64,000 nucleotides of DNA from an uncultured delta proteobacterium (lineage in GTDB: Bacteria > Desulfobacterota > Binatia > UBA9968), in NCBI GenBank assembly GCA_963745835.1, contig CAVUZH010000003.1:192001-256000 (forward strand), read 5' to 3'. This document shows, piece by piece, positions 26,211 to 60,218 of the stretch. A program made the translations under genes and the position numbers. Below the pieces are notes generated by a model. It worked only from the letters and a program-made list of their open reading frames with translations. It was not told the DNA's origin and ran no database searches. Each line of letters starts with the position of its first letter. Positions within the stretch are counted from its first letter, which is position 1.

Positions 26211-26211
26211 A

Positions 26212-28266: not shown

Positions 28267-29167
28267 CGATGTCCGACTCAAATTCGGCGCTGGCGCCAAA
28301 TCAAATCGTCGACTTCGGACAACCCAAAAATCTGGACGCGGGAAGAAACGAGAGCTTCAAGGCAGAGTGCGTTGGCAATTTCTAACCGCGCTAAGGCTAT
28401 CGTTCATCGCGATATAGGAGCGGACCAAACTCGATGGCCAAGGATATTCATCGTTACCGGCCGTGAGCAGTACGATAGCCATTTCCGGGACATCCTATCG
28501 ACTATCGCTGGGGATGGTTTTAGACGAAAGGCTGAAGGCGCTACAGATCGGATAGTGGCTGCAAGCTTGCCGGGTCACGATGAGTAGCACGATAAGGAAT
28601 CATCTAAGTTCTGCAATCTGAGCGCATTGCGGTGATCAGACTTGATCAGTTGTGGAGATCGCTCGGTACGGCGAAATCGACGTTCTAGCGAAACCTTCAT
28701 GTTTACGCCTGGCAGCAAATCGCCTTATCAGTGCAAGGAGATAGCCCAAGTTACCGGTTTTAACGTCGAATTCGAGCGGCAATACAGGATTCGATAGCAT
28801 GTCGGAAGAACAGCTGAGGTCGGCACGAGTACAACCCTTTCCTGATTTGCGCGATAACTGCGGCTCAGACTCGTTACGATCCCGCCATTCAACATTACCA
28901 CTGCGTTGTCGATGATGCGTGCTTTGATAGAACCTATCGAACATGCAAGACTGTCAGGATGATCAATCGGATAGGTTTAGTCCTGTAAAGTATCGACATG
29001 CTGCACCGAAGTATGCATGCTGACAGCTTTGTTGCGATCTTTCTTGGGACTCAAGACCCGGTGTCTGACTCGTGTAGCGTTAGATGGTGCTCGCAGTAGG
29101 CTTTTAAGGTCAAATCTAGTAAGTCTCTGTAACGAGATTCACGATCGGTGTTGATTTCCGCTCCTCC

Positions 29168-29802
29168 ATGAGTTTTTGGTTGAACACTTTCATTCCGCGG
29201 GACATTTTTGGCGCGTACAACTATGTTGCGTGAAGGCGAGTACAGGGGGTTAACGGTTTTGAGTGCAGCACCTTGCTATCTGACCGACCAACGTAATTTC
29301 AGTAATGATCTACGCGCCTCGTCGCGCATGCACTCCTTGGTCAAAGTTGATCTCACAGCTTCGGAGCCCGTTTTAACCCAGCACCACAGATGCGACGATC
29401 TCATTGAATGCGATCCGGTCAGCGGAGAAGTGCTACAACAAGCGGCGCGGTAGCACGTCAAAGATGAACATTCTCTTTGCTGGCGACTACGCCGACTATC
29501 CTGATCCAGATGGACTGTAGATATGGCGATTCGATACTCCCGCGCCGGTCATGGAATCGGCGAGATTGAGTATAAAGGAACAATCGAAATCGATCCCACG
29601 GCGCGCAGCATCGACATCGATCTAATGATTTGTTTGTTCCCCGCCTTTGAAGGATATGCGGCGATCGACGACGGAACCGGGACCGTTCTGTTCCGGCACG
29701 CACCTCCCGCTGGAATACTGAGCTCTTGGACCGCCGCGAGGGGCGAACCGCCGCATCCGGTCACGATTGGACGATGAATCTTTCAGCCAGATCAAACGAT
29801 GA
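29168..29802 (+). CDS. Hypothetical protein, DUF3238-like (multiple indels)
   Basis: Reconstructed across frames: MSFWLNTFIPRDI...CYLTDQRNFSNDLRASSRMHS...EIEYKGTIEID...FPAFEGYA...GANRRIR. The TGA at 29800-29802 overlaps the next ATG. Confidence 0.5.
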
Positions 29803-31381
29803 GCAGTCAACTAACAGCGTATGACAGCGTGCCGTATTCAGGGCATGCGCTGGCGCAAGCCCATCCTGACCGGCTGGCGACGATCGCGACGCTCTTCGGA
29901 ATGAAACCTGCGCCGATTACTCGCGCTCGCGTGCTCGAGCTCGGCTGCGGTGACGGACTCAATCTGACTTCGGTCGCGTTGAGCTTGCCGGAAGCGGAAT
30001 GTGTCGGCATCGATCTGGCCGCGGCAGGAATCCTGCAAGGGGCAGGAGCGCGCGCGGGCGCTTGGTCTTAAAAATCTGGAGCTTCGGCAACTCGACATCA
30101 TGGACGTCGGTGAGAGTCTGGGCCGCTTCGATTTCATCATTGCCCATGGAATCTATTCATGGGTTCCGGAGAAGGTGCGCGATAAGCTCCTGGCGATTTG
30201 CAAGCAGAACCTGGCGGAGAATGGCGTGGCTTACGTGAGCTACAACACCTATCCGGGCGGCCACATGAGGGATATGGCCCGCGAGATGATGCGCTTTCAC
30301 GTAAGCGAGTTTAACGATCCCCAGCAGCGCGTCACTCAGGCTCGCTCTCTGATCAAATTCATCATAGATGCTGGCAGCGAGCCCGATCTCTATCGCATGG
30401 TTCTGCAAAAAGAGCTGGATCGCATCACAGCATTTGCCGATAGCTCGCTCTTCCATGACGACTTATCCGAGTACAACGCGCCAGTTTATTTTTATCAGTT
30501 CGTTGAACACGCTGGGCGTCATGGCTTGAAGTATCTGTCTGAGGCGCACTTTTTTGAGATTCAGACAGGTATTTTCCCCGCCAGAGTAGTGGAAGTGCTA
30601 AACCGCATCTCGGACAGCGCTATCGCCAAAGAGCAATACTTGGATTTCCTGAAGTGCCGCCGCTTCCGGCAGACGTTGCTATGCCATGATGACCAGCCGT
30701 TAGACGATGACCCACGGCCGGAGAAGGTGAATTCATTTTACATCGCCTCGCCTACTCGGCCCGCTGATGCGAACGCTCGACTCGACTCTCGCGAGCAGTT
30801 AACGTTTGCCGGGCCCAAGAACTCATCGCTCCAAACCGATAATCCATTGATCAAAGTAGCAATTTCGGCATTGGGCAAAGCCTGGCCGAAAGCGATCCAT
30901 TTTCAGGAGCTGCTCGCTCAAGCACGAGGATCATGCGAGAGAGGATCTTCATGCGCGACTGCCAACGCTGACGACGATGCACGAACGCTCGGCGAGTTAC
31001 TGTTGAGAGCGTACGCCGGCGGCATTGTCGAATTCAGTCTTGTTCCGCCTCAACTCGTGACAAGTGCAAGTGAAAAACCGAAGGTAAGCGCACTGGCGCG
31101 TCTGCAGAGCCTAGAGGGCACCGAGGTTGTAAACCAGCGTCACTTCAATCTCCGAGTAGAAGATTCGTTAACGCGGCTGCTGCTGCAGTTGTTGGACGGC
31201 AGTCGCGACCGCGATGCATTGCTCGATGATTTAGTGACGCTGGTAAGATCCGGACGCCGCAGCCGTTGAAACAGAGAACGGCGCGATCACCAAGAGTGCC
31301 GAAGAAGTCCGGGGCTTCCTTGCCGCCGAATTGGAAAGAAAACTTGCTGAGCTGGCCGAAATGGGTCTGCTTGTTGCCTAA
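29799..31381 (+). CDS. Class I SAM methyltransferase with MethyTransf_Reg domain, Rickettsia PKMT-like protein-lysine methyltransferase (indels near 30037 and 31255-31295)
   Basis: YDSVPY..HPDRLATIATLFG, VLELGCGDG, FDFIIAHGIYSWVP, GVAYVSYNTYPG, EQYLDFLKCRRFRQTLLC, LLQLLDGSRD; reconstructed end LAELAEMGLLVA*. Confidence 0.8.
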
Positions 31382-31405
31382 TTTATCGGATAAAAGCTGA
31401 ACCGA

Positions 31406-32219
31406 ATGATGCCATCCGACGAAGACACTTCCGCAAAAACAATAAACGTCAAGGTCGAGCTTGCGGGACCCGATTGGCAGCTACAGACAACCATGTCTGT
31501 TCCGACGGAGCCTATTGGCTGAAAGAAATGCTGCCGCTGTTTTTTTCGTTTGCCGATGCCGTGATGAGCACAGCGGCCAACGGCGTAGAACAAACTGGAG
31601 AAAAAATTTCTTGCAAGAAAGGATGCGGCGCCTGTTGCCGGCAACTGGTGCCGATCTCCGAGACCGAGGCGCACTGGATTGGGGAGCTGGTAGATCGTTT
31701 ACCTATTCAAAAGCAAAATGAAATTCGGGACCGCTTCGCCGAGGCCCGGCGCCGGCTCGCCGAAACCGGTTTACTGGAAAAGCTGCTCCATCGCGAAAGT
31801 TGGGCCGAAGGCGAGGGATGGTCCATTGCGATGTCCTATTTTCGTTTGGGGATTGCCTGCCCATTTCTCGAAAACGAAGCCTGCTCTATTCATCCAGACC
31901 GTCCTATCAAATGCCGGGAGTATTTGGTGACCTCGCCGGCCGAGCACTGCCGCGCAGCCCACCGCGGAGAAGATAAGGCCTGGTCGAATTGCCGTTTCAG
32001 ATGTGGACGGCGCTGGCTCGCCTAGAGAATGCTTCACCGAGTAAAGAAAAAATTCGCTGGGTGCCTCTGATACTTGCGTTGGAATGGGCCGACGCTCATG
32101 CGCAAGAGCCGAAGCCGCGTCCCGGACATGAGGTCTTGCGCGAGTTTTTTGATTGCCTTACGGGGAAAGGCGTTTCTCAGGAAAAGATCGACTCAGCAGG
32201 TGAGACTAACTCTGCTTGA
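31406..32219 (+). CDS. YkgJ/CxxCxxCC (FliB-related) cysteine-cluster protein (indels near 31518 and 31955-31985)
   Basis: SCKKGCGACC and CPFLENEACSIHPDRPIKCREY; N-terminus MMPSDEDTSAKTINVKVEL and C-terminus IRWVPLILALEWA lie in adjacent frames. Confidence 0.8.
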
Positions 32220-32331
32220 ATGAAACAAGAACTTGGCAGCCTTGATCGTTTTGAAAGAAAGCATCCTTCACCTTCATTGACAACTTTTTAAGTTTTGCGG
32301 TAGAGCTAGACTCCCCAGATGATTATGACTT

Positions 32332-32824
32332 ATGGCTAGAATTGATAGCGACGTGAACATCGTTCCGTCGATCCTCGACCGGCTGCTCGACGATGAACCG
32401 GAAATCTCCACTGAGCCGGCTACGAGCCGAGTCAAGGGTTTTCGCTCCTTAGAACGATCCGTGGCTCGTGACCTCGAAGCGCTTCTCAACTCACGGCAGG
32501 AAACCTTAAAGGAATTGCCCAGCGAGTTCAAAGAAGTAAACCGCTCGTTGCTGACGTACGGGCTGCCTGATTTCACCTCGTTCAGCTTACTAACCCAAGA
32601 CGATCGGCTTCGGATCAGGCGATCAGTCGAAGACGCAATCAACACGTTTGAGCCGCGGCTGTTGCGGGTGCGCGTAGCGTCTGGAAGCGCCGCGGGAGCA
32701 CGATCGCGGCCTGCGTTTTCGCATCGATGCCTTTTTGCGGGTAGATCCGTCGCCGGAACCTGTGACCTTCGATGCGGTGTTGCAGATGAACACTCAACAG
32801 TACGTGATTCAGCGGGAGCAGTAA
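32332..32824 (+). CDS. tssE: Baseplate subunit TssE (1-nt insertion near 32680)
   Basis: PSILDRLLDD, VARDLEALLNSR, YGLPD, FEPRL; the shifted frame continues LEAPREHDRGLRFRIDAFLRVDPSPEPVTFDAVL to TAA 32822-32824. Confidence 0.9.
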
Positions 32825-34644
32825 TGGCTGACGATCTTATTACCTACTATGAGAGAGAGCTCAGCTTTCTTCGGCAAATGGGAGCCGAGTTCGCTGCCAA
32901 ATACCCTAAGATCGCTGCCCGCTTACTCCTTGAAGCGGACGCGTCGGAAGATCCTCATGTTGAGCGCCTGATTCAGGCGTTTGCCTTTCTTGCCGCGCGC
33001 GTCCATCACAAGATCGACGATGACTTCCCAGAGGTGACTGAAGCTCTACTGAACGTGCTTTACCCTCATTATCTGGCGCCGATTCCCTCGATGTCGGTGG
33101 TCCAGTTTGTTCTTGATCCGGAGCAAGGAAAGCTTACGAGCGGATACGCGGTTGCGAAAGGCTCTACTCTTTACTCACATCCTGTCGATGGTGCGCCATG
33201 CAGGTTCCGCACCTGTTATCCCGTTACGTTGTGGCCGGTTCAGATCGAGACAGCGAGTCTCGAACCGGTAGACTCACGCTTGGGTGTTTTTCCGAGAGCG
33301 GCACTCGGATTAATACGGCTCGAGATCCGCTGCTTGAGCGGCATCAAGTTTGCCCAGCTAGAGCTTGACCGGCTTCGTTTTTTTCTGCACGGGGAAGGCG
33401 CGCTGACTTATGCGTTGTACGAACTGCTCTTTAACAACGTGATAGAAGTGCGCATCCCGTCCAGCAAACCCAACGAAAGCTCCAAGGATATTTCGCTGCC
33501 GGCCAGCAGCGTAGGTCCGGTCGGATTTGGCGCCGATGAAGGAATCCTGCCTTACGGTGCGCGATCGTTCCTGGGATACCGGCTGCTGCAAGAGTATTTC
33601 AGTTTCCCGGAAAAATTTTTATTTTTCGAGCTCACCGGACTCAATCGTGCGGCGCAGAGTCGACTTGACGATCGGATGGAAATTCGGATCTTGCTCAATC
33701 GAATGCCGCGCTTGGAGCAACCGGTTACACGAGATACATTTCGCTTGGGTTGCACGCCGATTGTGAACTTGTTTTCCCAAACCGCCGAGCCTATCCGCCT
33801 GAGCCACACAGGCACCGAGTACCAGGTGTTTCCCGATATTCGAAGACAAAATGCCACCGAGGTCTATTCCATTGACTCGGTGACCAGCGTTTCTCCCGGT
33901 TCCGATGAGGTGGTCGAATTCGAGCCCTTCTACTCCTTCAAGCATGGAGTTGAACGGGAGCACCAGCAGGCCTTCTGGTATGCCGCGCGCAAGCCGTCTC
34001 CGAAAAAAGGGGATAACGGCACCGACGTGCATCTGGCGTTCGTCAATCTTGATTTCCGGCCCACCCTTCCGGCCGTGGACACGTTGATCATTCACACCAC
34101 ATGCAGCAATCGGGATCTTCCGGGGAAGCTGCCGTTCGGGGGCGACCGCGGTGAGTTCGAGCTCGAGGGAGCGGCGCCGCTATCGCGCATTCGTTGTCTG
34201 CGCAAGCCGACCGAGACTCTGCGCGCGCCGTTACGCCGGGGGACCCAGTGGCGGATCATCTCGCATCTCGGCCTCAATTATCTTTCGCTCTGCGACGGAA
34301 GTCTCGAAGCGTTGAAAGAAATCCTAAAGATCTATGATTTCGCCGATTCATCGTCTGTACGACAGCAAATCAACGGCATTATGCTCTTGACCAGCAAACA
34401 AGTCGTCGGCCGACCGCGCTCGATGCCGTGGAATGGTTTCTGTCGCGGGCTGGAAGTAACGGTCGAGTTCGATGAAGAAAAATTTGTCGGCGGTGGAGTC
34501 TTTTTGTTTGCAGCCGTGTTGGAAAATTTTTTTGGCTTATACACTTCGCTAAATTCATTTACTCAGCTCGTTGCCAAATCTCGACAACGCGAGGAGCCCC
34601 TTAAGCGATGGCCACCGAGAGCCGGAGAGCAGATCCTTCTTTAG
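32824..34644 (+). CDS. tssF: Baseplate subunit TssF
   Basis: MADDLITYYERELSFLR, DPHVERLIQAFAFL, YRLLQEYFSFPEKF, LGCTPIVNLF, WRIISHLGLNYLSL. Confidence 0.96.
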   Translation: MADDLITYYERELSFLRQMGAEFAAKYPKIAARLLLEADASEDPHVERLIQAFAFLAARVHHKIDDDFPEVTEALLNVLYPHYLAPIPSMSVVQFVLDPEQGKLTSGYAVAKGSTLYSHPVDGAPCRFRTCYPVTLWPVQIETASLEPVDSRLGVFPRAALGLIRLEIRCLSGIKFAQLELDRLRFFLHGEGALTYALYELLFNNVIEVRIPSSKPNESSKDISLPASSVGPVGFGADEGILPYGARSFLGYRLLQEYFSFPEKFLFFELTGLNRAAQSRLDDRMEIRILLNRMPRLEQPVTRDTFRLGCTPIVNLFSQTAEPIRLSHTGTEYQVFPDIRRQNATEVYSIDSVTSVSPGSDEVVEFEPFYSFKHGVEREHQQAFWYAARKPSPKKGDNGTDVHLAFVNLDFRPTLPAVDTLIIHTTCSNRDLPGKLPFGGDRGEFELEGAAPLSRIRCLRKPTETLRAPLRRGTQWRIISHLGLNYLSLCDGSLEALKEILKIYDFADSSSVRQQINGIMLLTSKQVVGRPRSMPWNGFCRGLEVTVEFDEEKFVGGGVFLFAAVLENFFGLYTSLNSFTQLVAKSRQREEPLKRWPPRAGEQILL

Positions 34645-35699
34645 AGCACGTACTGTTCGAAGAGGGATATCGGTTCGATTTTTTTCAGGCGGTGCGCGTC
34701 CTGGAGCGCCTCTATTCCGCGCGACTGCCTGTCGGACGCAGTTCCATACCTGCCAAGGAGGCGGTGCGCTTCCGGTCGCTTCTTTCTCTCAGCTTTCCCC
34801 CCAGCTCGATTTACGATGTTGCTTATCCCGACAACGGCGATAGTCCACCCGAGATGGTCGTGGCGTTTATGGGCTTGTTCGGTTTAGCGGGAGTGCTGCC
34901 GCGCCATTACACCGAGCTTCTGCTCGAGCGGGTGCGCCAGAAAGATTTCGCCCTGCGCGATTTTCTCGATCTCTTCAACCACCGGATGATCTCACTCTTT
35001 TATCGCGCCTGGGAGAAATATCGTTTTCCGGTGGCATACGAGCGTTCCCGTTTGTCCTCGGACGCTCATTATGATCCGTTCTCGTTTTCGCTATTCAATC
35101 TGATTGGAATGGGAACGGACGGGCTTCGAGGCAAGCTCAAATCCGGCGATGAACCTCTGCTGTATTACAGTGGCTTGATAGCCCAACAGCCGCGTTCGGC
35201 CTGCGCGCTCCAAGCTATGCTGGGTGACTATTTCAACGTGCCGCTGATCATCAAGCAATTTATCGGCGCTTGGCTCCGTGTTGATGATGAGAATCGCACC
35301 AGGCTTGGCCGTGGTGACTCCAATAACGAGCTTGGCACCACGACGATGCTCGGCTCTAAGTGCTGGGACCAACAAGCGGGCTTCACTTTAGCCGTCGGCC
35401 CGCTCAAGTTTCAGCAGTTTCGCGAATTTCTTCCTTGCGAGACTGGATTTAATTCATTGGTCGAACTGACTCGTTTTTTTGTCGGTTTAACGCTTGATTT
35501 TGATGTCCAATTGGTTTTACAAGCAGCTGAAGTACCGGGCTGTCGTTTGACCAGGCCAGGGCCGGAAGCGCTCCGACTCGGCTGGTCGAGCTGGCTAAAG
35601 ACAAAAGAGTTTTCTTGCGATGCCGCAGAGGCGGTTCTAGGACGCCATTTAACGCGCATGCAAAAATTATCTGGCCACCCTTCGCAGGCAACGCTATAG
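34608..35699 (+). CDS. tssG: Baseplate subunit TssG
   Basis: FDFFQAVRVLE, GVLPRHYTE, DFLDLFNHR, YRAWEKYR, LGWSSWL. Confidence 0.95.
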   Translation: MATESRRADPSLEHVLFEEGYRFDFFQAVRVLERLYSARLPVGRSSIPAKEAVRFRSLLSLSFPPSSIYDVAYPDNGDSPPEMVVAFMGLFGLAGVLPRHYTELLLERVRQKDFALRDFLDLFNHRMISLFYRAWEKYRFPVAYERSRLSSDAHYDPFSFSLFNLIGMGTDGLRGKLKSGDEPLLYYSGLIAQQPRSACALQAMLGDYFNVPLIIKQFIGAWLRVDDENRTRLGRGDSNNELGTTTMLGSKCWDQQAGFTLAVGPLKFQQFREFLPCETGFNSLVELTRFFVGLTLDFDVQLVLQAAEVPGCRLTRPGPEALRLGWSSWLKTKEFSCDAAEAVLGRHLTRMQKLSGHPSQATL

Positions 35700-35712
35700 G
35701 AGGCAGGCCCCC

Positions 35713-38382
35713 ATGAACGTTAATCTCAAATCTCTTATCGGTAAATTAAACAATACAGGCCGCCAGGCGCTCGAAAGCGCCGCAGGTTTGTGCGTGACTC
35801 GTACTCATTATGATATTGACATCGAGCATCTGTTGCTCAAGCTCGTCGAAGCCGAGAATACCGACATCCAGAAAATCCTTCGACACTATGAAGTCGATCA
35901 AGCTAGGCTCACGCGCGATCTAACTCGCGCGCTCGACCGGTTGAAAACCGGCAACGCGCGCACACCGGCGTTCTCGCCGAGAATTCCCCGGCTCATCACC
36001 GAAGCGTGGAATCTAGCCTCGATCGATTTCGGCGCGGCTAAGGTTCGCTCAGGCCATCTGCTCCTGGCAATGCTCAGCGAAGAAAACCTGGGCCGGCTGA
36101 CGAGGGATGCATCGCCCGAGCTGCAAAAAGTTTCGGTTGAAGAACTGCACAAGCATTTCGCCGATCTCACGGCAGGAACTGCTGAGGATGAAATCACATC
36201 TCCGACAAGCCCGGAGACCGCCGAGCCGGGTATGGGCGGTCCGACGAAGACGCCTTCGCTCGATCAGTTCACTATCGATTTGACTGACCGAGCGCGCAAG
36301 GGTCAAATCGATCCGGTGCTAGGCCGCGACTTCGAGATCCGGCAGATGGTCGATATTCTTACTCGCCGGCGACAGAACAATCCGATCCTGACGGGCGAAG
36401 CCGGTGTGGGAAAGACCGCGGTTGTCGAGGGGCTGGCGCTGCGGATTGCCGCGGGTGATGTGCCGCCGCCGCTTAAAAACGTCGCTTTGAAGTCTCTCGA
36501 TCTGACTTTGTTGCAGGCAGGGGCGGGCGTAAAAGGAGAGTTCGAAAATCGCCTCAAATCGGTTATCGAGGAAGTCAAAGCATCGGGGCAACCGATCATT
36601 CTTTTTATCGATGAAGCGCATACGATGATCGGCGCCGGCGGACAAGCGGGCCAAGGCGATGCGGCTAATATCTTGAAGCCGGCTCTGGCGAGAGGCGAAC
36701 TGCGCACCATTGCGGCGACGACTTGGTCGGAATACAAAAAATATTTCGAGAAGGACGCTGCTTTAGCAAGACGATTTCAGGTCGTGAAAGTCGATGAGCC
36801 CACCGAGGAGCAGGCAGTGGCGATGCTGCGCGGCCTGATGAGCACCCTCGAAAGTCATCACAACGTTCGGATTCTCGACGAGGCGATGGATGCAGCCGTG
36901 CGACTATCGCATCGCTACATCACCGGCAGGCAGTTGCCCGACAAGGCGGTGAGTGTGCTCGATACCAGTTCGGCGCGAGTGGCCTTGGGCCAGATGACGA
37001 CACCGCCGGCACTTGAAGACTGTCATCGCCGCATGGCCCACCTTGACACCGAGATGGGAATCCTTGAACGGGAATCTCTCACCGGCGGAAGCATGAACGA
37101 GCGCATCGACGCTCTGACCAAGGAGAAGGCTCAGATCGAAAGTCGTTTAGCTGAGCTCAACAACCGCTGGAACGAGGAAAAAAAGCGCGTCGAAGAGTTG
37201 CGCGGGCTTAGGGGAAAACTCGAGGCCCATGCGGCGGCAAGCAAACAAGCGGGCAATGGCAAAACAGACGGAAAGCTGTCTCCTGAGGAAGTTAAGCAGG
37301 CGCAGGGTGAGATCGCGCGACTCAACGATGAGTTAAGCAAGATTCAAGGCGACAGCCCCCTCATGCAGGTTTGCGTCGATGCCCAGGCCGTTGCCGAAGT
37401 AGTCTCGGGTTGGACGGGAATTCCCGTCGGCAAAGTCATGAAAGACGAGATCCAGACAGTGCTATCGCTCAAAGACCGGTTGGAGGAGCGCATAATCGGC
37501 CAGTCCCATGCGCTCGAAGCGATCGCCCAGCGCATTCGCACGGCGCGCGCGAAACTGGAAGATCCACGGCGGCCCATCGGCGTATTCATGCTCGTTGGGC
37601 CCAGCGGTGTTGGCAAGACCGAAACCGCCCTGGCGTTGGCGGACACGTTGTTTGGCGGCGAGCGCAATGTGGTTGTCATCAACATGTCTGAATACCAAGA
37701 AGGCCACACGGTCTCAGGTCTGAAGGGCTCGCCGCCGGGATACGTCGGCTACGGCGAAGGCGGAGTGCTGACGGAGGCGGTCAGGCGAAAGCCTTACTCA
37801 GTCGTGCTGCTCGATGAGATGGAGAAGGCGCACACCGATGTCATGGAGCTTTTCTATCAGGTCTTTGACAAAGGCATGTTGGAGGACGGCGAAGGCAGGG
37901 AAATCGATTTCAAGAACACCTTGATTCTCATGACCTCCAATGCCGGCACCGAGACGATCGCGAAGCTCTGTGCCGACCCGGATACCAAACCGGAACCGGA
38001 CGCGCTCGCCGACGCTCTGCGTCCTGACCTGCTCAAAGTCTTCAAGCCGGCGTTCCTGGGGCGAGCGATCATCGTTCCTTATTATCCGATTGCCGACGAC
38101 ATCATGAAGAAGATCATCGAGCTGCAGCTCGGAAGAATTCAAAAGCGGCTTTTCGAAAATCATCGGGCACAGTTTTCCTACGATCCAACTTTGGTCGACG
38201 AGGTCGCGCGCCGCTGCACCGAGGTCGAGAGCGGCGCGCGCAATGTCGATCATATTCTCACGCGCACCTTGTTGCCGGAAATATCGAAAGAGTTTCTGGC
38301 GAAGATGGCCGCTGGTGAGGGAATCAGCAGGGTACACGTATCAGTTGGCGGTCAGGGCGGTTTTCAGTACCAGATTGCATGA
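35713..38382 (+). CDS. tssH: ClpV AAA+ ATPase (TssH)
   Basis: NLKSLIGKLN, RRRQNNPILTGEAGVGKT, second Walker A GPSGVGKT, GYGEGGVLTEAVRR. Confidence 0.97.
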   Translation: MNVNLKSLIGKLNNTGRQALESAAGLCVTRTHYDIDIEHLLLKLVEAENTDIQKILRHYEVDQARLTRDLTRALDRLKTGNARTPAFSPRIPRLITEAWNLASIDFGAAKVRSGHLLLAMLSEENLGRLTRDASPELQKVSVEELHKHFADLTAGTAEDEITSPTSPETAEPGMGGPTKTPSLDQFTIDLTDRARKGQIDPVLGRDFEIRQMVDILTRRRQNNPILTGEAGVGKTAVVEGLALRIAAGDVPPPLKNVALKSLDLTLLQAGAGVKGEFENRLKSVIEEVKASGQPIILFIDEAHTMIGAGGQAGQGDAANILKPALARGELRTIAATTWSEYKKYFEKDAALARRFQVVKVDEPTEEQAVAMLRGLMSTLESHHNVRILDEAMDAAVRLSHRYITGRQLPDKAVSVLDTSSARVALGQMTTPPALEDCHRRMAHLDTEMGILERESLTGGSMNERIDALTKEKAQIESRLAELNNRWNEEKKRVEELRGLRGKLEAHAAASKQAGNGKTDGKLSPEEVKQAQGEIARLNDELSKIQGDSPLMQVCVDAQAVAEVVSGWTGIPVGKVMKDEIQTVLSLKDRLEERIIGQSHALEAIAQRIRTARAKLEDPRRPIGVFMLVGPSGVGKTETALALADTLFGGERNVVVINMSEYQEGHTVSGLKGSPPGYVGYGEGGVLTEAVRRKPYSVVLLDEMEKAHTDVMELFYQVFDKGMLEDGEGREIDFKNTLILMTSNAGTETIAKLCADPDTKPEPDALADALRPDLLKVFKPAFLGRAIIVPYYPIADDIMKKIIELQLGRIQKRLFENHRAQFSYDPTLVDEVARRCTEVESGARNVDHILTRTLLPEISKEFLAKMAAGEGISRVHVSVGGQGGFQYQIA

Positions 38383-38447
38383 AGGTCTTTCATGCGGCGC
38401 ACGATTCGCAGTTTTAGGGTCATGTCCTCGAGCTTGAGGGCGCAGTC

Positions 38448-40613: not shown

Positions 40614-41149
40614 AGAACCGGGTCATTAGAAACGCTGTGTACAGCCAGAAGAACCGAATTGAGCCAATGGATCAAGCGAGAACGTCTACTCTTTTGGAAC
40701 TCATCACCGAAGGAAGATCGCCAATGCAAATCCAGTCGGCGGAGTTATTGTTGGAAAATTTGCGGGTTTCGACGCTGCGGGAGATCCGCTAGTCAATTTT
40801 GTCGCCGATATCGATCTGCAGAGATATCGTCGCACGTTCCATGATCGCGCTCAGAGAAGACCAAGTAGGATCTGACGTTGTTCTCGCTTTTGAACATGGC
40901 GACTTAGCAAAGCCCATTGTCACGGGTCCCTTTGGCAGCGCGAAGATCCTCGTTCGCAAAAACTAGTTGTGGCAGAAGCTCGACGGAGAGCGTATAACTC
41001 TAACCGCTCAGAAAGAAATAGTTCTCCGTTGCGGCAAGGCGAGTATCACGCTGACTCAAGCAGGCAAAGTTCTCATTCGAGGAGCTTATCTTTCCAGTCA
41101 TTCATCAGGTGTGAACAGGATCAAAGGCGGTTCTGTCCAAATCAACTAG
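40610..41149 (+). CDS. DUF6484-family VgrG/gp5-like spike accessory protein (several indels)
   Basis: Reconstructed ARSMIALREDQVGSDVVLAFEHGDLAKPIVTG...DGERITLTAQKEIVLRCGKASITLTQAGKVLIRGAYLSSHSSGVNRIKGGSVQIN*. Confidence 0.8.
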
Positions 41150-41258
41150 CTGAGACGCTTGACGTTTTATTGCAGTCAAGCGCAGAAAACGCAAATCGTC
41201 GGCAGAGCCGGACCACCCATGACGGCGATAGATCCGCTTCTCAGTTGCACTTGCACCG

Positions 41259-42532
41259 ATGAGCTTTACTGAGAGTGAGACTTCTACTGTTATCAAGGCG
41301 ATAATTGAGCAGCACGCGGACGAGGCCGCTTTTCTGTGGACCGTGCGAGATCGAGCTGTGCTTTCATCCAGCTACTCTCTTAAAGATACTTTCAGCCTTA
41401 GATGAACGAGTTGAAGCACATCTCGATGGCCTGCGTGTCGCCGGTCCGTTTGGCTGGGAGGCCTGTGAACAGGCTTTGGATCAAGCGGAACCTGGATGTG
41501 TGTTCCCGGCTACGGTGCTGGCGTTTGATAGTGGCGATGCTGAACGGATTCGCCGAGTTTTGCAAATAGCTTGTTTGTCGCCCGAGTTGCAGCGGGGACT
41601 CATTTCGGGTCTTGGATGGTTACCTTTTAGCAAGATCGAGGCAGACCTAAACGATATCCTTGTTTCTGAACTTCCGGAGATGCGCTGTATAGCCATTGCA
41701 GCTTTTGCTGCGCACCGTCGGGATCCTGGTGAGCCGTTAATGCAAGCACTATCTGATCCGAATGCTCGATTGCGGGCACGAGCACTCAAAGCTTGCGGAG
41801 AACTAGGGAAGGCGGATTTCTTGCCTCTGATTTTGAAGTCCATTTCAGATCAAGACGAGAGTGCCGTTTTTTTGCGGCCTGGTCTGCAGCTCGCCTTGGA
41901 GATCGATCGCAGCAAGTTGCTCAGACACTGAAAGAGATCGCATTTGGCGACGAGTGAGTATGCGGAACGGGCGTTAGACATTGCTCTGAGGATTATGAAT
42001 TTTCAAGACGCAAAAAGCTGGTATCAACACCTCAAGAGAGAACCTGCTCAACTCCGTACAGCAATAGATGCAGCCGGAATTATCGGAGTCCCAGAATTCG
42101 TAACAGACTTGATTGATTTCATGAAGCATCCAGCCGATTGCGCGGCTTGCCGGGCAATCGTTCTCGATGATTACGGGGGTGAATCTCGCCTACGAGAATC
42201 TGAGCGGAGATAAGCCAGAGGATTTTGACGCTGGACCAACAGAAGATCCCGAAGATGAAAATGTGGCAATGGATCCGGATGAGAATTTACCGTGGCCTGA
42301 CGCGGCGTTAGTGACAAAGTGGTGGAATCAGCATCGGCCGAAGTTCCAAGCTGGCAGACGATATCTCAGAGGCAAGGAAATCGCCACTCAATCACTTCGC
42401 GAGGTCTTGATCGAAGGAAATCAGCGCGAGCGTGCCGTGGCAGTTTTGGAGTTAGCTGTTAAAAAGCCGGCAGAGCGTTTGTTCGAAGTCCGGGCTCGGG
42501 CAGCATTCCAATTCGAGGCATTGAGGCTCTAG
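41259..42532 (+). CDS. TIGR02270-family HEAT-repeat protein (several indels)
   Basis: IIEQHADEAAFLW...LDERVEAHLDGLRVAG; C-terminal GPTEDPEDENVAMDPDENLPWPD...WW...GRRYLRG. Confidence 0.85.
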
Positions 42533-42585
42533 AACTTTTGGACGAGTGAAGAAGAACATTACTTGCTAAATCGGCTTAGCATAGG

Positions 42586-43974
42586 ATGGCGTGCATGAAT
42601 CATATCAAGCCGTATGACGAGCTGCCTTACAAATGCCTTCCGATCGAATGGACGGCGCCCGAGCGACTTGCGCTCGCTTCCATTCTGCATGGAGGCCCGC
42701 GACCCTCGCTCGACACATACAGAGTGCTTGAGCTTGGATGTGGAAATGGAGCGAATCTATTGCCGCTGGCGTATTATCGGAGGCACGCAACTTTTGTCGG
42801 TCTAGACGGCGCTCTTACCCAGATTGAAATCGCCGATGCTCGCAAATCAGCACTGGAGTTATCCAACATCGAATTTATTCACTCGAATTTCTTTACAGCA
42901 GCCCAGAGACTCTGGGGTCAGTTCGACTTCATTATCGCTCACGGCATCTTTTCATGGGTAACCAACGACGTCCGTGATGCTCTGCTAGAGCTCTGCGCAC
43001 AACACCTTCGCCCCGGTGGTCTGCTCTACCTGAATTATAATACAAGACCGGGCTGGAACGTGCGTGGCATGGTAAGGGAGTTTCTTCTCGCGCAGACAGC
43101 CGGGACGACAAGCCTCCAAATGCGAGCTCAGGCCGCCCAGGATGTTGCAGCCAAAATCGTTTCGTCCCTGACGATAGCTGAACATCCTTACTCGCAACTG
43201 ATGGCTAACGAGTTTCGATTTGTTTGTGAGAATCATGTGTCCTATGTCGCGCACGAATACCTCGCGTCCGAAAACCATCCCTATTGGAGAAGCAAATTCC
43301 TGGGATTGGCGCGAGCCTATGGACTTGAGTATGTGACCGACGCAGACTTCTGTTATAGCTCGGGGCGACTTCCTGAAGACTTGGTATCACGACTCAGTGA
43401 AGAGCAGATTGCAGGACGTACGCTCGATGATACCGTGGACCTGCTGTGCTATCGACAACTGCACTCTCCAATCCTGACGCATAGCCCATTGACATTGCGA
43501 CCTCCGAGCATCGAGGAGTTCGCGAACCTAATCGTCGCTTCGTGTCTCGTACCCTGTGCCTCGAACAATACTGAGAACCCAATGTTCCAACATCCGTCCG
43601 GCTATCAGGTTGAAGCAAAGACGGTAGATATGGCGACTGCACTCAGCGGGTTACAGTCGCTGTGGCCACGAGGCCTCCGTATAGGTACTTTATTCCCAGA
43701 TGTGAGGGGGATCATCGATGATCTGAAGCTTCTACAGCGGAACGGACTCATCGAACTGCGTTGCATTGAGCCCGGCGAGTTTAGTGTCGGTCGGACGCCG
43801 CTAAACAGATTGGAGAGCCGGTGGGGCGATTATGTTACGTCTCCCATATCACACACCGGAAGCTGTCCCGAAGCGAGTTTGGAAGCCGATCCTGTTGATA
43901 TGAACGCTAACTCGCAAGTCAGGTCTCTGGAGCGGACAGCGCAACAATCTCTTGTCTCTTCATGTCGCCGCTAA
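42586..43974 (+). CDS. Second PKMT-like class I SAM methyltransferase with MethyTransf_Reg-like domain
   Basis: PYDELPY..APERLALASILHG, VLELGCGNGANL, FDFIIAHGIFSWV, LYLNYNTRPGW, YVAHEYL. Confidence 0.82.
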   Translation: MACMNHIKPYDELPYKCLPIEWTAPERLALASILHGGPRPSLDTYRVLELGCGNGANLLPLAYYRRHATFVGLDGALTQIEIADARKSALELSNIEFIHSNFFTAAQRLWGQFDFIIAHGIFSWVTNDVRDALLELCAQHLRPGGLLYLNYNTRPGWNVRGMVREFLLAQTAGTTSLQMRAQAAQDVAAKIVSSLTIAEHPYSQLMANEFRFVCENHVSYVAHEYLASENHPYWRSKFLGLARAYGLEYVTDADFCYSSGRLPEDLVSRLSEEQIAGRTLDDTVDLLCYRQLHSPILTHSPLTLRPPSIEEFANLIVASCLVPCASNNTENPMFQHPSGYQVEAKTVDMATALSGLQSLWPRGLRIGTLFPDVRGIIDDLKLLQRNGLIELRCIEPGEFSVGRTPLNRLESRWGDYVTSPISHTGSCPEASLEADPVDMNANSQVRSLERTAQQSLVSSCRR

Positions 43975-43985
43975 GGTAAAGAAGA

Positions 43986-45012
43986 ATGTGGGCCGTAACA
44001 AATCGTACTCCTTATAAAGTTGGGCGTGTTTGGGGGCGTGACAAGGACGGTGTCCACGAGTGGATTGTGGCCGTCAAGGGCACTTTCGACATCAAGCCTG
44101 ATGGCAGTCTCAGGCTTGCCGATGAGCAACTCGAACCATTGCTGCTGCCGGAGTATAACGGCGAGCCAGGTGTATCGAGCCTGCGCTACGACGCTGATCT
44201 TGTTGCACCAAAGCCCACAACGGATGTGGTGGTCAATGGCACGGCATATGCGCCAAAAGGACACCCGAGCACAGACTTTCTCGTTTCGGTTCGCGTAGCT
44301 CGGATCCAAAAGACGATTCGAGTCAGAGGTCACAGCGAGGATGGAAGCGGGGGCTGTTCGGTCTCGAACCATCGGCTCGGAACCGATCACTAAACTTCCG
44401 ATCATCTATGAGCGCGCTTACGGTGGATACGATCAAACGGATCCTGATCCGAAAAAGCAACGCATAGATTTGCGAAATCCGGTGGGCTGCGGCGTAGTCG
44501 GCGAAATCAAAAAATCGAATTGGTCAGCATTACCCAATTTCGAATACCCCAAAGGAAAGCTAGAAAAGGCCGGCCCTGCCGGCTTTGGCGCCATCGACAG
44601 CTATTGGTCGCCGCGACACGAACTGCAGGGCACATACGACAAAGCTTGGCAGAAGGATCGTTACCCACTTTTGCCTAATGATTGGGATCCACATTCCCTG
44701 TTGTGTTCGCCCCCAGACCAGCGCCCCAAAAAACACCTGCATGGCGGCGAACTCGTCGAACTAGAGAATCTGACACCGAACGGCAAGCTCCGCTTTACCC
44801 TGCCGACGGCTTACCTACGTTTCCTGACGCACATCGACAATCGCACTGAAGAACACGAGCGTCGGCTGGCCACGGTGATCATCGAGCCCGATTATCCACG
44901 CCTGATCATGGTGTGGCAGTCCGTGCTGGCGGTTCGTAATGACGGCGATTATCTCGATGAGACCGTCGTGACTGAGAACGAATATTTCGGAAGGCTGGCA
45001 TCGAATGGCTAG
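43986..45012 (+). CDS. DUF2169 T6SS effector adaptor (indels near 44335-44380)
   Basis: VAVKGTFDI, DADLVAPKPTTDV, YERAYGG, RNPVGCG, PAGFGAID..WSPR, LHGGELVELENL, TVIIEPD. Confidence 0.88.
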
Positions 45013-46073
45013 TTCGATTCAGATCGTCGGAATTGGCGCGCGGACGCCCCTCGGTGATGCGGCCACCGCCGCGGCCGCCGTTCGAGCAGGACTGACGGGG
45101 CTCGGCCAGCATCCCTTCATGTTGGATCGCGACGCCGTTCCTATCCCCGGCCGCCCTCGTCGCGGAGCTCGATCTGACCGACATGGGTCCCAAGCGCCTG
45201 CTCGCATTGGCCGAACCCGCGCTGCGCGACGCTTGCGCGTCGCTCGACTCCGGCAGGTCGGTTCGACAGCGGTTGCCTGTTTTCCTGGGACTGCCGGCGC
45301 TCCGGCCCGGATTCACCGAAAAGTATGCCGAGGCCGTGCGAACCGGATTGGCTCGACTGGACGGGCTCCCGGCGGACCTCGCTGAAATCACGGTTTTCTC
45401 CCATGGGCACGCGGCGGGAGTATCGGCCTTGGCGGCAGGGTTCGAGCATCTCCACAACTCCACGTTCGAGGTGTGCCTCGTCGGAGGTGTGGACAGCTAT
45501 TTCCACGCCGACACGGTGGACTGGCTCCTCGCGAATCGCCAACTGGCCGGCGCGGTCTCGCGTTCCGGTTTTGTGCCAGGTGAAGGAGCGGCGTTTTGTT
45601 TGCTGGCCACCGACAAAGGTCTCAACCGTCTTGGTCTGAAGCCCATGGCGCGCGTGCGTGCGGTGGCCGTCGGTAAAGAAACGAAGTTGATCAAGACAAC
45701 GGACCTGTGCCTCGGCGAAGGTCTAAGCGCAACCGTGAGAGACGCGGTGAGTGGTCTGCGACTTCCCGATGAAAGGATCAACGAAATCTATTGCGACATC
45801 AACGGCGAACGCTACCGCAGCGAAGAGTGGGGATTTGTCTGCCTGCGCTTGGCACAGTACTTCGACGATGCGACAACGTATCATTCGCCGGCCGAATGCT
45901 TGGGCGATATGGGCGCCGCCTCGGGACCGTTCTTTGCGATCCTGGCATGCCAGGCCTTTGCGCGCCGTTACTCCAGAGGACCGCGCGTCATGTTGTGGGC
46001 GAGTTCGGAAGGTGGCCAACGAGGTGTCGCGGTGTTAGAGGATTCGACGGCGGGACTGAAAGAAAGGAATTAA
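45005..46073 (+). CDS. Thiolase/ketoacyl-synthase-like T6SS accessory protein, PRK06147-type (indels near 45150-45180)
   Basis: IVGIGARTPLG...AAVRAG, LVGGVDSY, GFVPGEGAA, CDINGERYRSEEWG, GDMGAASG. Confidence 0.85.
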
Positions 46074-46074
46074 G

Positions 46075-46898
46075 GTGCCAAGTGTAGCCATCCATCCGCC
46101 GAAGACGCCGGTCCATAAAGGCAGCCACACGATCGCAAAAGCCACCATTCCAAACATCTGCAAGATGCCGGGGCCGCCGGCGCCGTTCGTGCCCGCCCCG
46201 CTGCCGAACATCGCCAAGTCGGAACTCTCGCCGAAAGATTACTCGACGACGGTCAAGATCGAAGGCAATACGGTCGCGATCAGAGGTTCGACGTTTGAAA
46301 GCATCGGCGATATGGCCAGCAAAGGCACCGGGGGTGGCTTGATCTCGGCCAATTTCACGGACCGGCCAAGTTCATCGCCCCCGGTTCGATGACCGTCAAG
46401 ATCGAGGGGAAGAACGTCCATTTGCTTGGCGACTCGATGCTCAACAATCTGGGGCCGAGCGGCAGCCCGCCGAACACGGGCGCGACCATGATGGGTGCGG
46501 ATCATGCGGACCTGTCGATGGAATCGAGGTGCAAGAAGGCACGCGAAAGAAGCGGAAGACTGGCGAATGAATTCAGGCACGGCCTGGACCAGCCGATGAG
46601 AAGCCGGCAATCGTGCAGTGCTGTCGATACGAATGGCAGATTGAGTACAGGGGTGAGAGGTTCCAGCTACCTCTGGTGAGTGACCTCGCAAAACAGTTTC
46701 CGTCTCCGCATAACCACAAATGTGCTGAATTGACGGCCATTTCCAGAATATCAGCATGCATGGACTGGAGACGGTGCGGGATGCGTTATCACAACAGTCA
46801 ATGTGCGAAGACCAGGTCATGAAGATCACAACACAAAGGAACCGGCCTGCCCGGGGTGCAAACCGCTGCTGGAGGCCTTAGGCATCATCAGATGTTGA
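46075..46898 (+). CDS. PAAR-like (DUF4150) effector with C-terminal YwqJ-like deaminase toxin domain (multiple indels)
   Basis: N-terminal PNICKMPGPPAPFVPAPLPNIA, TVKIEG x2, LGDSMLNN; C-terminus across frames HNHKCAELTAIS...VITTVNVRRPGHEDHNTKEPACPGCKPLLEALGI. Confidence 0.7.
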
Positions 46899-46914
46899 GG
46901 CCCGGAGAGCTCAG

Positions 46915-47407
46915 ATGGATATTTGGAAGGACTTGACGACCAGAGAAATGCAGGCTTATGGAGCCTTATGTCTGCATCGCTTTTGCAAAGCCACAGGATC
47001 AACATCGATCCATTGATGAACTGATCGACCATCTTCTCTCAATGCTGGTCTCCTATCCCTTGGACAAGTGGGAACGCCGAGGAGCGCGCCTGCACTTGAA
47101 CAGGTAGAGGCTGGGATCCGCTTCCGGCATCTCTGAACGACCAGCTTCCCGAAGAACTTCGGAAAGACTTCGCCCGGTTCGTCGAAGACGTTGTGGATAT
47201 CGGCTTCTGCGATATGTATGGGGCCCCCACGACCAAATCGCTGAAGTATTTATAAAAAGCTTGACGTTTCTGGACGAACACGGGATTGAGCGTCCAGACG
47301 TGGCCGAACTCTTTAAGAATCGCACCCCGAGAGGGGGGACCGCTCCGGACTTGGGAGAAGTATTCTCTCAGGAACGATACGAGCAGGTGAGAGCGTTGTT
47401 CCGATAA
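46915..47407 (+). CDS. Probable immunity protein (multiple indels; missed by the ORF track)
   Basis: GGAG RBS at 46904, ATG 17 bp after the toxin stop; reconstructed MDIWKDLTTREMQAYGALCLHRFCK...IDELIDHLL...GRGWDPLP...VVDIGFCDMYGAPT...LDEHGIERPD...YEQVRALFR*. Confidence 0.55.
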
Positions 47408-47512
47408 CGTGACCTGGCACGTCGATCCAATAGGCTGCCCCACACATGTTGTCGATCTATGGAATGCCTGTCCGGTGTGACTTGTCTCGTTGCGGAGGCG
47501 AACCGATAGACC

Positions 47513-47830
47513 GTGCGTGCCAACCCATACGACGAGCTACCCTACAAATCGCTCCCCATCGAATGGACCGCACCCGAACGCCTTGCGGTGGCTTCGCTCC
47601 TTCATGGGGGTCCCCGAGCGCCGGTGGAGACCTATCGGGTTCTGGATCTGGGCTGCGGCAACGGTGCGAACGTCGTACGGCTAGCGTACTATCGGAGACA
47701 GGCCGCCTTTGTGGGTTGACGGTGCAGCGAGCCAGATCGAACTCGCGAACTTTTGGAAGTCGGCTCTGGACCTCTCCAACATCGAGTTCATCCACACGGA
47801 TTTCCGCACTTGCCCAACTCGTCTGGGGTC
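47513..47830 (+). pseudogene. 5' fragment of a third PKMT-like methyltransferase, truncated by a transposase element
   Basis: 51 of 64 residues identical by manual count to the N-terminus of 42586..43974; similarity ends at the W-G-Q codons. Confidence 0.85.
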
Positions 47831-54128: not shown

Positions 54129-54442
54129 ACTTCACACGCTTCCTGAGCTTCGCATTGGCACAGCCTGTGAATCAATAAATTCTTTCCCCCGAAAAGATGG
54201 TTGTTTAGGACATCTAGCTGACTATGATTGGTTTCGTCCTATCTGTGACTTGTAGGGCGTTGGCTATATCACTGATATCACAATCTGGTTGGAGCTCTGA
54301 ACTTGCTCGGCTTGATGAAATCAGCACGATAATTGCGTAGCAAACTCCTATGTATGTTGATGTAGCTTTTGCATTTAGTTGGTACACGGCTTCCGCGCAT
54401 GGGCGCATGCTAGCTGGTTACGATTGCTGCAGGAATGGACTT

Positions 54443-57036: not shown

Positions 57037-57050
57037 GACCTACCCTGAAC

Positions 57051-59451: not shown

Positions 59452-59461
59452 ACTGACCTTC

Positions 59462-60091: not shown

Positions 60092-60218
60092 TACCAACTC
60101 CCTTCAGCCAGAAGTTATTCTACAGGAAGGATAGCCGCCGATTTAGCATTTAGGCCAAAAGCTGTCAATCAATGAGTTGCTTGTCATCTAACTGAAATTT
60201 TGCTGATCGATCGGCTGA

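Follow-up and report, generated by a model that had tools for sequence, protein, structure and literature searches.

The window analysed here is a stretch of 64,000 nucleotides from an uncultured delta proteobacterium of the Desulfobacterota (class Binatia, UBA9968; contig CAVUZH010000003.1 of assembly GCA_963745835.1, positions 192,001 to 256,000). It contains a type VI secretion system (T6SS) gene cluster at 13.4-46.7 kb, in which two genes of the protein-lysine methyltransferase (PKMT) family, termed MT1 and MT2 below, are embedded. This is the sole T6SS cluster detected in the source genome, which comprises 7.28 Mb in 25 contigs (97% complete, 9.3% contamination). MT1 is located between hcp and tssE and is followed by a gene for a CxxCxxCC protein (the CxxC protein), while MT2 is located in the spike cassette downstream of vgrG, between the genes for a TIGR02270-family HEAT-repeat protein and a DUF2169 chaperone. 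The features of these two regions, with their positions in the window, strand and supporting matches, are as follows.

27778-28266, + strand: Hcp (Pfam T6SS_HCP, E 7.7e-40)
29165-29777 (about), + strand: uncharacterised gene, frame-broken (tblastn with the protein of the relative G005, 64% identity)
29799-31381, + strand: MT1, full-length methyltransferase of the PKMT1/PKMT2 type, read in three frames (Pfam PF10119 and PF21782)
31406-32219, + strand: YkgJ-type CxxCxxCC protein, three frames (Pfam PF03692, E 1.1e-7)
32332-32821, + strand: TssE (Pfam GPW_gp25; the TssE of the relative G001 aligns in two frames)
38448-40613, + strand: VgrG (Pfam Phage_GPD, E 2.9e-84; Gp5_trimer_C; Phage_base_V)
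40610-41149, + strand: TvpC-like DUF6484 protein, three frame pieces (Pfam DUF6484, E 6e-11, on the piece at 40799-40966)
41259-42532, + strand: TIGR02270-family HEAT-repeat protein, four frame pieces (Pfam HEAT_2)
42586-43974, + strand: MT2, intact PKMT-family methyltransferase (Pfam, PDB profile, AF2/Foldseek)
43986-45012, + strand: TvpA, a DUF2169 PAAR chaperone, two frame pieces (Pfam DUF2169, E 1.5e-27 and 1.4e-48)
45005-46073, + strand: TvpD (PRK06147, ketoacyl-synthase-like), two frame pieces (Pfam ketoacyl-synt)
46075-46679, + strand: PAAR-like (DUF4150-type) domain of the spike effector, two frame pieces (Pfam Tox-PAAR-like, E 2e-9)
47522-47825, + strand: remnant of a second MT2-type gene (tblastn with MT2 residues 8-109, one frame change)
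48359-49177, + strand: fragment of an IS200-like Y1 transposase with a DnaA-C helix-turn-helix (HTH) domain (Pfam Y1_Tnp, E 1.3e-6; Bac_DnaA_C, E 2.4e-6)

An initial annotation of this DNA had proposed a T6SS with a built-in methylation module made of three methyltransferase genes and the CxxC protein. All four genes are present on the + strand at the places it gave, inside the single T6SS cluster of the genome. The positions of MT1 between hcp and tssE and of MT2 in the spike cassette were likewise confirmed, but the third copy had been placed after an effector/immunity pair, and the interval from the PAAR-like gene to this fragment yielded no identifiable immunity gene. Nor does the count of three hold for working genes: two are full genes, whereas the third covers ~100 codons with one frame change (its identity to MT2 is 78% for residues 8-72 and 62% for residues 73-109). 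It is a dead remnant with no working gene, next to the IS200-like transposase gene, and its place after the effector resembles the gene order TvpA-TvpD-PAAR-x-MT-TIGR02270 found in other cassettes. The truncated fusion of the IS200-like transposase and the DnaA-C HTH ends the T6SS island, and the G+C content falls to 0.48 there.

MT1 consists of a class I methyltransferase core, a regulatory (dimerisation) domain after it that matches PF10119 (E 2.4e-20) and a C-terminal PKMT winged helix that matches PF21782 (E 4.3e-14); the latter match is shortened in the window by a frame break, and PF21782 is present in 118 of the 120 MT1 homologues listed. When a profile of 15 MT1-type sequences was compared with the PDB, it aligned end to end (profile positions 6-525) with PKMT1 of Rickettsia prowazekii (5dnk, E 5.5e-131) and also matched PKMT2 of R. 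typhi (5doo, E 9.5e-116). An intact MT1 orthologue of 526 residues that is 96% identical is present in G001.

MT2 is an intact open reading frame (ORF) of 462 residues that matches Methyltransf_25 (E 5e-15) and PF10119 (E 1.6e-7). The PF10119 matches of MT1 and MT2 both lie above the curated cut-off and are the only ones in the whole 7.28-Mb genome, and both proteins also carry Methyltransf_25/12/31 matches; the two are 29% identical to each other across 301 residues. A profile of 14 MT2-type sequences matched PKMT1 (E 4.2e-64) over residues 4-318 only, with the alignment stopping at residue 318, and no PF21782 match was found with Pfam. An AlphaFold2 (AF2) model of MT2 (mean pLDDT 70, pTM 0.65) had PKMT1/2 as its top Foldseek matches (E 6.7e-26, ~408 aligned columns, TMq 0.58), and its last 65 residues (398-462) fell below a pLDDT of 50. 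Because these residues are poorly modelled and a PF21782 match is missing, MT2 is taken as a shortened paralogue. MT1 thus has the four-domain architecture of the Rickettsia enzymes, whereas MT2 has three domains, sharing the AdoMet-binding, dimerisation and middle parts with PKMT1/2 and lacking a recognisable C-terminal winged helix. A search for fused forms of MT2 returned a distant 1164-residue TPR fusion as its sole match, which is weak evidence against an informative fusion.

The membership of MT1 and MT2 in the family of S-adenosylmethionine (AdoMet)-dependent PKMTs is secure; the assignment to PKMT1/PKMT2 in the initial annotation is borne out by the profile matches of both proteins to 5dnk and by the folds of the MT2 model (E about 1e-25). 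The glycine-rich motif LELGCG.G.N is invariant in the 15 MT1-type and 14 MT2-type sequences. In RpPKMT1, AdoMet is hydrogen-bonded by Asp102 and His146 (PMC11784438, section 6), which correspond in the alignment to D72 and H116 of MT1, invariant in the 15 MT1-type sequences, and to D74 (invariant) and H119 (kept in at least 90%) of the 14 MT2-type sequences. As these AdoMet-contacting residues are conserved, MT1 and MT2 are probably active as enzymes.

The main text of PMC11784438 (Inoue et al. 2024) shows the PKMT family to be widespread in Gram-negative bacteria. Its characterised members there include PKMT1 and PKMT2, which modify OmpB, and KmtA ('OM PKMT A'), a PKMT-family enzyme from an environmental bacterium, Acinetobacter sp. 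Tol 5, which multiply methylates one exported fibre protein, AtaA; both targets are destined for export. The same main text ties the family to trimeric autotransporters and contains no mention of T6SS or type VI, whereas MT1 and MT2 are located in a T6SS operon and not beside an autotransporter gene. The alternative that MT1 and MT2 are small-molecule methyltransferases was rejected, since the characterised relatives that we met all act on protein lysines.

The CxxC protein encoded downstream of MT1 is of the PF03692/YkgJ type and carries the motif CKKGCGACC (CxxCxxCC). An intact homologue of 270 residues is present in the relative G022, and a scan of this copy (locus L048) gave no NCBIfam match. 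The initial annotation had placed the flagellin lysine methylase FliB in the same family, a relation that proved weaker than stated: the name 'Flagellin N-methylase' for PF03692 proteins comes from automatic cluster names only, whereas Salmonella FliB, as described in the relevant passages of PMC8598068, has a CX4CX3CC motif, a [4Fe-4S] cluster and no recognised domain, its motif being only 'similar' to PF03692. The two proteins are alike in that FliB is a Cys-cluster protein required for lysine methylation of an exported filament protein; they differ in Cys spacing and in that FliB acts alone on flagellin, whereas the CxxC protein accompanies a Rossmann-fold methyltransferase. We did not adopt an identification of the CxxC protein as FliB because of the motif spacing and the lack of an NCBIfam match in the G022 homologue. 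No flagellar genes were noted among the window ORFs scanned with Pfam.

The order hcp-...-MT1-...-tssE is retained in G001, G005 and G022. The gene between hcp and MT1, frame-broken in the window, is an intact ORF of 234 residues in G005 and is also present in G001, and its homologues stand after hcp in the metagenome loci L051 and L052; copies are located at L050:8800-9504 and L052:323-1036. It is without a Pfam or NCBIfam match, and its Atlas scores are below 0.9 (0.85 or lower). The ~234-residue protein may be a partner or a substrate of the methyltransferases.

The cassette that contains MT2, with the order VgrG-TvpC-TIGR02270-MT2-TvpA-TvpD-PAAR-toxin, is a class II Tvp system as Monlezun et al. 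2026 (PMC13373197) define it. There, the class comprises VgrG, the DUF6484 protein TvpC, the DUF2169 protein TvpA, the PRK06147 protein TvpD and a DUF4150 PAAR-toxin, with PA0095-PA0099 of P. aeruginosa as the model. The window has the same components in the same order but differs in the PKMT-family gene inserted beside TvpA or the TIGR02270 HEAT protein, and the main text of that paper mentions neither methyltransferase nor TIGR02270. Intact homologues of the TvpC-like protein lie between vgrG and the methyltransferase gene in relatives, and at locus L023 the homologues of the HEAT protein and of TvpD matched TIGR02270 (E 3.2e-123) and NF004798 (E 2.8e-57), respectively, in NCBIfam. Liu et al. 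2020 proposed PRK06147 as an adaptor and reported TIGR02270 fused to PRK06147 in 3.8% of cases, and we found two such fusions in the tables of that paper. A TIGR02270-like gene is present in 13 of 18 Burkholderiales class II Tvp cassettes (L152-L168); this HEAT protein therefore often accompanies class II systems, of which it may itself be an additional component. A prediction of the complex between the MT2 and TIGR02270 proteins of L023 (score 0.01, mark 0.32) speaks neither for nor against binding.

The cassettes with MT2 occur in at least three gene orders, namely VgrG-TvpC-MT-TvpA-TvpD-PAAR, TvpA-TvpD-PAAR-x-MT-TIGR02270 and the TIGR02270-MT-TvpA order of the window, and their genes are closely packed: in L023, TvpC ends 69 bases upstream of the methyltransferase gene, and the longest TvpA frame overlaps the end of that gene. 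Across 17 cassettes the PAAR-like N-terminal domain is conserved, in contrast to the C-terminal toxin region. The median pairwise identity of MT2 (0.51) is similar to those of TvpA (0.54) and TvpD (0.51), and MT2 distances track those of TvpA (Pearson 0.74) and TvpD (Pearson 0.84). MT2 therefore belongs to the constant part of the cassette and diverges at the rate of the chaperones. A role of MT2 as an immunity protein was rejected, as MT2 is constant while the toxins vary. The PAAR-like domain of the MT-linked lineage is 32-43% identical to that of cassettes without the methyltransferase. Seven of its alignment columns hold lysine in at least 80% of the 17 MT-linked sequences, and four of these hold lysine in none of the 9 sequences without it (0/9); as the two groups are different lineages, these columns are a list of candidate sites and not evidence of modification. 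In L023 numbering, candidate positions in the PAAR-like domain include K8, K28, K46, K81 and K111.

We surveyed the neighbourhoods of related genes by tblastn. For MT2, 24 of 38 species-genome loci carry VgrG, DUF2169, TvpD, PAAR-like or TIGR02270 genes, and of those with at least 5 kb on both sides 16 of 23 are linked to T6SS/Tvp genes. A Pfam scan, run on 10 of the 14 unlinked loci, added L010 (a PAAR-like fragment) and L026 (a TsiV immunity gene), both directly upstream, to give a total of 26/38. Their hosts, which span at least six phyla, belong to the Gammaproteobacteria, Burkholderiales, Myxococcota, Planctomycetota, Acidobacteriota and Nitrospirota. Culturable, harmless carriers of the MT2 cassette include Variovorax brevis (strain J22R133, L038), Rhizobacter spp. 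(among them Root1238, L032) and Caballeronia hypogeia. MT1 relatives (36-78% identity) have T6SS genes at 23 of 78 metagenome loci and the CxxC gene only at 4 more (27/78). Of 41 relatives, including the source genome, five have a T6SS sheath gene, and PF10119 occurs in four of these; it was found in none of the 36 that lack a sheath gene, although these kin are not independent of one another.

As a control, we took 20 other PKMT-family genes from Burkholderiales-type genomes around Variovorax, all of a single order, and looked for T6SS/Tvp genes within 10 kb; none had them (0/20). PKMT-family matches at E 1e-40 or better were present in 22 of the 301 genomes of that order, with an MT2-clade match in the centre genome alone. 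Given this control and the linkage of MT1 and MT2, the association is a property of particular clades and not of the whole PKMT family. The neighbourhood survey had been named in the initial annotation as the test on which its proposal could fail; close homologues turned out to be strongly enriched beside T6SS genes. The linkage is real and conserved, and it is a new combination of two known kinds of element, a T6SS accessory cassette and a PKMT. The recurring pairing in unrelated bacteria points to a putative, undescribed accessory function of the T6SS.

In a tree (FastTree with SH-like support only; 14 of 116 loci were excluded for ORFs shorter than 380 or longer than 700 residues), the MT2 clade mixes the host phyla, which implies that the cassette moves horizontally between them. 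Such mobility raises the alternative that the methyltransferases are passenger genes on a mobile T6SS island that act on an unrelated envelope protein or a small molecule, with the linkage reflecting co-transfer. Besides the tree, the G+C content of 0.59 at 44-46 kb (compared with ~0.53 around it), the transposase gene flanking the island and the occurrence of some clade members alone fit this view. We nevertheless consider it highly improbable, because two PKMT clades, the DUF7059-MTS family and the CxxC family all turn up repeatedly in T6SS loci of differing architecture, MT2 stays inside tightly packed operons of at least three gene orders across phyla, and the background PKMT genes are unlinked to T6SS.

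Several methyl-group-handling enzyme families recur in T6SS loci of differing design. In G022, genes for the 270-residue CxxC protein, an 806-residue CxxC::DUF7059::MTS fusion (L048:11857-14277) and MT1 stand in a row before tssE. The MTS domain of the fusion is HemK/PrmC-like, and the DUF7059-MTS-DUF7782 family as a whole resembles HemK/PrmC/PrmA. At L052, hcp and the homologue of the uncharacterised gene are followed by a DUF7059-MTS-DUF7782 enzyme (1110-2588), three tandem PKMTs and a CxxC gene, and at L090 (4387-5931) and L060 (5146-6651) a PKMT is paired with the same MTS-type enzyme beside Hcp, VgrG, TssA or TssM. No copy of the DUF7059-MTS-DUF7782 family was found in the source genome of the window.

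Some of the related loci also contain sheath-like genes beside the PKMT. TssB- and TssC-like tblastn matches with 32-41% identity adjoin a PKMT in eight metagenome loci (L054, L055, L056, L058, L072, L100, L101 and L117). In two of them (L056:8424-9992 and L101:8404-10026), a single ORF of 522-540 residues combines a partial VipA (TssB) with the N-terminal domain of VipB (TssC) according to Pfam, and it stands apart from the normal tssB/tssC pair. G022 carries a second VipB-like gene on its T6SS contig.

These observations bear on the possibility that the enzymes regulate the machine, methylating non-secreted parts such as the sheath, the baseplate, ClpV, TssA or the Tvp chaperones as a second switch beside phosphorylation and so controlling assembly, firing or recycling. 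The PpkA/PppA/Fha pathway provides post-translational control of the T6SS by phosphorylation, and its counterparts are encoded in the window together with the remaining genes of the cluster:

13420-14331, - strand: PP2C phosphatase, PppA-like (Pfam PP2C_2, E 7.8e-20)
14328-15536, - strand: TssL, DotU with an OmpA domain (Pfam DotU, E 1.1e-40; OmpA, E 2.4e-18)
15641-16435, - strand: ImpE/TagJ-like protein (Pfam ImpE, E 7.5e-36)
17234-18688, - strand: Ser/Thr kinase, PpkA-like (Pfam Pkinase, E 3.1e-52)
19407-22796, + strand: FHA domain fused to TssM, IcmF-related (Pfam FHA, E 3.5e-19; IcmF-related_N, E 2.8e-66)
22814-24154, + strand: TssK (Pfam T6SS_VasE, E 8.5e-129)
24413-25546, + strand: TssA (Pfam ImpA_N, E 8.5e-37)
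25671-26210, + strand: TssB (Pfam T6SS_VipA, E 1.9e-60)
26170-27705, + strand: TssC (Pfam VipB, E 8.9e-141; VipB_2, E 6.6e-50)
32824-34644, + strand: TssF (Pfam T6SS_TssF, E 5.3e-236)
34608-35699, + strand: TssG (Pfam T6SS_TssG, E 2.7e-108)
35713-38382, + strand: ClpV (Pfam AAA_2, AAA_lid_9, ClpB_D2-small)

The T6SS core identified with Pfam thus consists of TssA, TssB, TssC, TssE, TssF, TssG, TssK, TssL, TssM, Hcp, VgrG and ClpV; TssJ was not identified among the core genes sought, a Big_2 protein at 16554-17135 being a mere candidate. A regulatory role would parallel the PpkA/PppA/Fha pathway in placing genes for post-translational modification inside the T6SS cluster, although that pathway acts by phosphorylation, with a known regulatory role, and not by methylation. 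It would also suit the PKMT genes beside TssB- and TssC-like matches at the eight loci, the fused VipA-VipB-like ORF in both loci scanned, the second VipB-like gene of G022 and the presence of PpkA, PppA and FHA-TssM in the window. We regard it as quite unlikely, as the methyltransferase genes adjoin hcp or vgrG more often than sheath genes, and PKMT1, PKMT2 and KmtA modify exported surface proteins at many lysines, with no regulatory single-site case described in the sections consulted for these enzymes.

We propose instead that MT1 and MT2 are accessory enzymes that would act in the cytoplasm of the producer cell, methylating T6SS proteins on their lysines ahead of expulsion. The targets would be Hcp, VgrG or both for MT1, and for MT2 either the PAAR-like tip or the complex that loads it. 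This reading, to which we give an even chance, draws on the analogy with PKMT1/2 and KmtA, on the position of the genes beside hcp and vgrG, and on the fact that MT2 falls within the constant portion of the cassette, which serves delivery. Three of its points are inferences: the choice of a T6SS protein as substrate, the identity of that protein, and the benefit of methylation, be it protection of the projectile, tuning of its surface or licensing of its loading.

Several observations weigh against this proposal. Most class II Tvp cassettes work without a methyltransferase, as the MT2 gene is present in none of the 18 Burkholderiales TvpD regions (0/18); loading as such thus does not depend on the enzyme, which is a rare add-on of one sub-lineage. 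Seven MT2-type genes (L016, L021, L022, L028, L029, L031 and L034) lie in non-T6SS contexts and another (L006) beside a transposase, and 51 of the 78 MT1-type metagenome loci show no T6SS gene, most of these contigs being short. In the assembly, MT1 and most cassette genes are frame-broken, and a check against short reads did not reach the cassette at 40.6-46.7 kb. Two further observations suit a different role for the enzymes. After PKMT1/2, the next-best fold for the MT2 model is Rv2067c of M. tuberculosis (PDB 8hkr; E 4.2e-11, TMq 0.43, 15% identity), which is reported to be a secreted H3K79 lysine methyltransferase; and at L122 and L064 a PKMT is located downstream of VgrG, a DUF4123 adaptor and two small ORFs, the usual place of a cargo effector.

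Both of the latter would be expected under the main rival explanation, that the methyltransferases are themselves T6SS cargo, carried on the VgrG/PAAR spike by adaptors to methylate proteins of bacterial or eukaryotic prey. Judging from the reported secretion of Rv2067c, this fold can serve an injected effector, although that enzyme is only 15% identical to MT2 and has no relation to T6SS. MT2 also lies in the vgrG island amid adaptor genes, and an enzyme with a eukaryote-only target would presumably need no immunity gene. We nonetheless hold a cargo role to be unlikely. MT2 is constant between cassettes, whereas both the PAAR-fused toxin domain and the genes downstream of it vary, and its divergence matches and correlates with that of TvpA and TvpD. 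MT2 has no N-terminal extension, its PKMT core starting at residue 8, and the position of MT1 beside a Cys-cluster gene in the core operon, between hcp and tssE, would be unusual for an effector. Moreover, enzymes of 46-60 kDa exceed the lumen of Hcp.

Methylation in the producer cell before firing can be extended to a bolder model, which we offer tentatively and rate as somewhat less than an even bet. In this model, PKMTs, often accompanied by a DUF7059-MTS enzyme and a YkgJ-type Cys-cluster partner (possibly an iron-sulfur protein), form a dedicated T6SS-coupled methylation system that, prior to firing, would give the expelled Hcp tube, VgrG spike and PAAR tip a coat of methyl-lysines. Such a coat would shield or tune the projectile within the prey, for example against proteases or lysine-directed tagging, and in one lineage the enzyme would have become part of the Tvp cassette, where it would license loading.

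To our knowledge, the accessory proteins described for the T6SS to date comprise chaperones, adaptors and regulators that work through phosphorylation. If the proposed function is correct, covalent modification of the machine or of its projectile by a conserved set of enzymes would represent a new layer of T6SS biology, and the widespread, little-studied PKMT family would gain a second cellular context beside autotransporter adhesins; the culturable soil carriers make the question directly testable. The class II Tvp system described in 2026 is extended as well, with TIGR02270 in most of the cassettes surveyed and a methyltransferase added in one sub-lineage. The initial annotation knew of no described T6SS methylation module, and our full-text searches of the literature likewise found none in the main texts that they covered. 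None of the three T6SS papers closest to the subject uses the word 'methyltransferase' in its main text, and a small O-methyltransferase-like fragment in a T6SS module, reported in a paper on Rhizobium etli, is unrelated.

Nine genes of the cluster, namely those for MT1, the CxxC protein, TssE, the uncharacterised protein, TvpC, the TIGR02270 protein, TvpA, TvpD and the PAAR-like protein, are read in two to four frames in the window. Single inserted bases break the uncharacterised gene at 29436, 29468, 29538 and 29721 and the MT1 gene at 30036 and 31254, the CxxC gene changes frame near 31517, 31952 and 31979, a +1 insertion at 32679 that is absent in G001, G005 and public contigs pushes TssE into the frame of TssF, and the PAAR-like gene changes frame near 46333-46392. 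Alignment of the window to two same-genus relatives over 29.2-38.4 kb located extra single bases in genes at 29436, 29468, 29538, 29721, 30036, 31254, 31952, 31979 and 32679, and a further one at 38386 between clpV and vgrG, none of them in a homopolymer. The single in-gene exception in this interval is a base that the CxxC gene lacks at 31517, while the unpaired indels of non-coding stretches are of both signs. Public short-read contigs from independent runs lack the bases 29215, 29721, 29786, 30036, 31253, 31956, 31982, 32679 and 38386; one of these contigs (707 bases, 4 differences) is 99.4% identical to the window. The spike cassette (40.4-48 kb) has almost no cover in the four public runs. 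The insertions concentrate in the accessory parts of the T6SS cluster, where the gene calls from the genome are fragmented.

If the frame breaks were real, the T6SS accessory genes would be pseudogenes and the module would be decaying in the source genome. The stretches 29.2-32.7 kb and 40.6-46.7 kb together hold at least 19 single-base differences that disturb a reading frame; these, along with the truncated methyltransferase copy and the transposase fragment at the end of the island, are what decay would leave. It is a very unlikely explanation, however, given that the unpaired in-gene indels at 29.2-38.4 kb are all +1 insertions but one, that the inserted bases are missing from the independent short-read contigs, and that the source is a 25-contig assembly with 9.3% contamination in which the long core genes (ClpV, VgrG, TssF and TssC) are intact. 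The single-base insertions at 29.2-38.4 kb are probably assembly errors in variable, poorly polished parts of a long-read metagenome assembly. Contigs of the soil metatranscriptome X15 match parts of MT1, tssE/F, clpV and vgrG at 94-99% identity, although such libraries may contain DNA. In Caballeronia hypogeia (L037, 10001-11259), the MT2-type gene also aligns in two frames, owing to either a frameshift or a sequencing error.

Further downstream (54350-56035 and 56499-60097), the window contains another Ser/Thr kinase gene with Big_2 ORFs after it and, on the minus strand, a group of CsgG-like/PEGA/TPR/OmpA genes.

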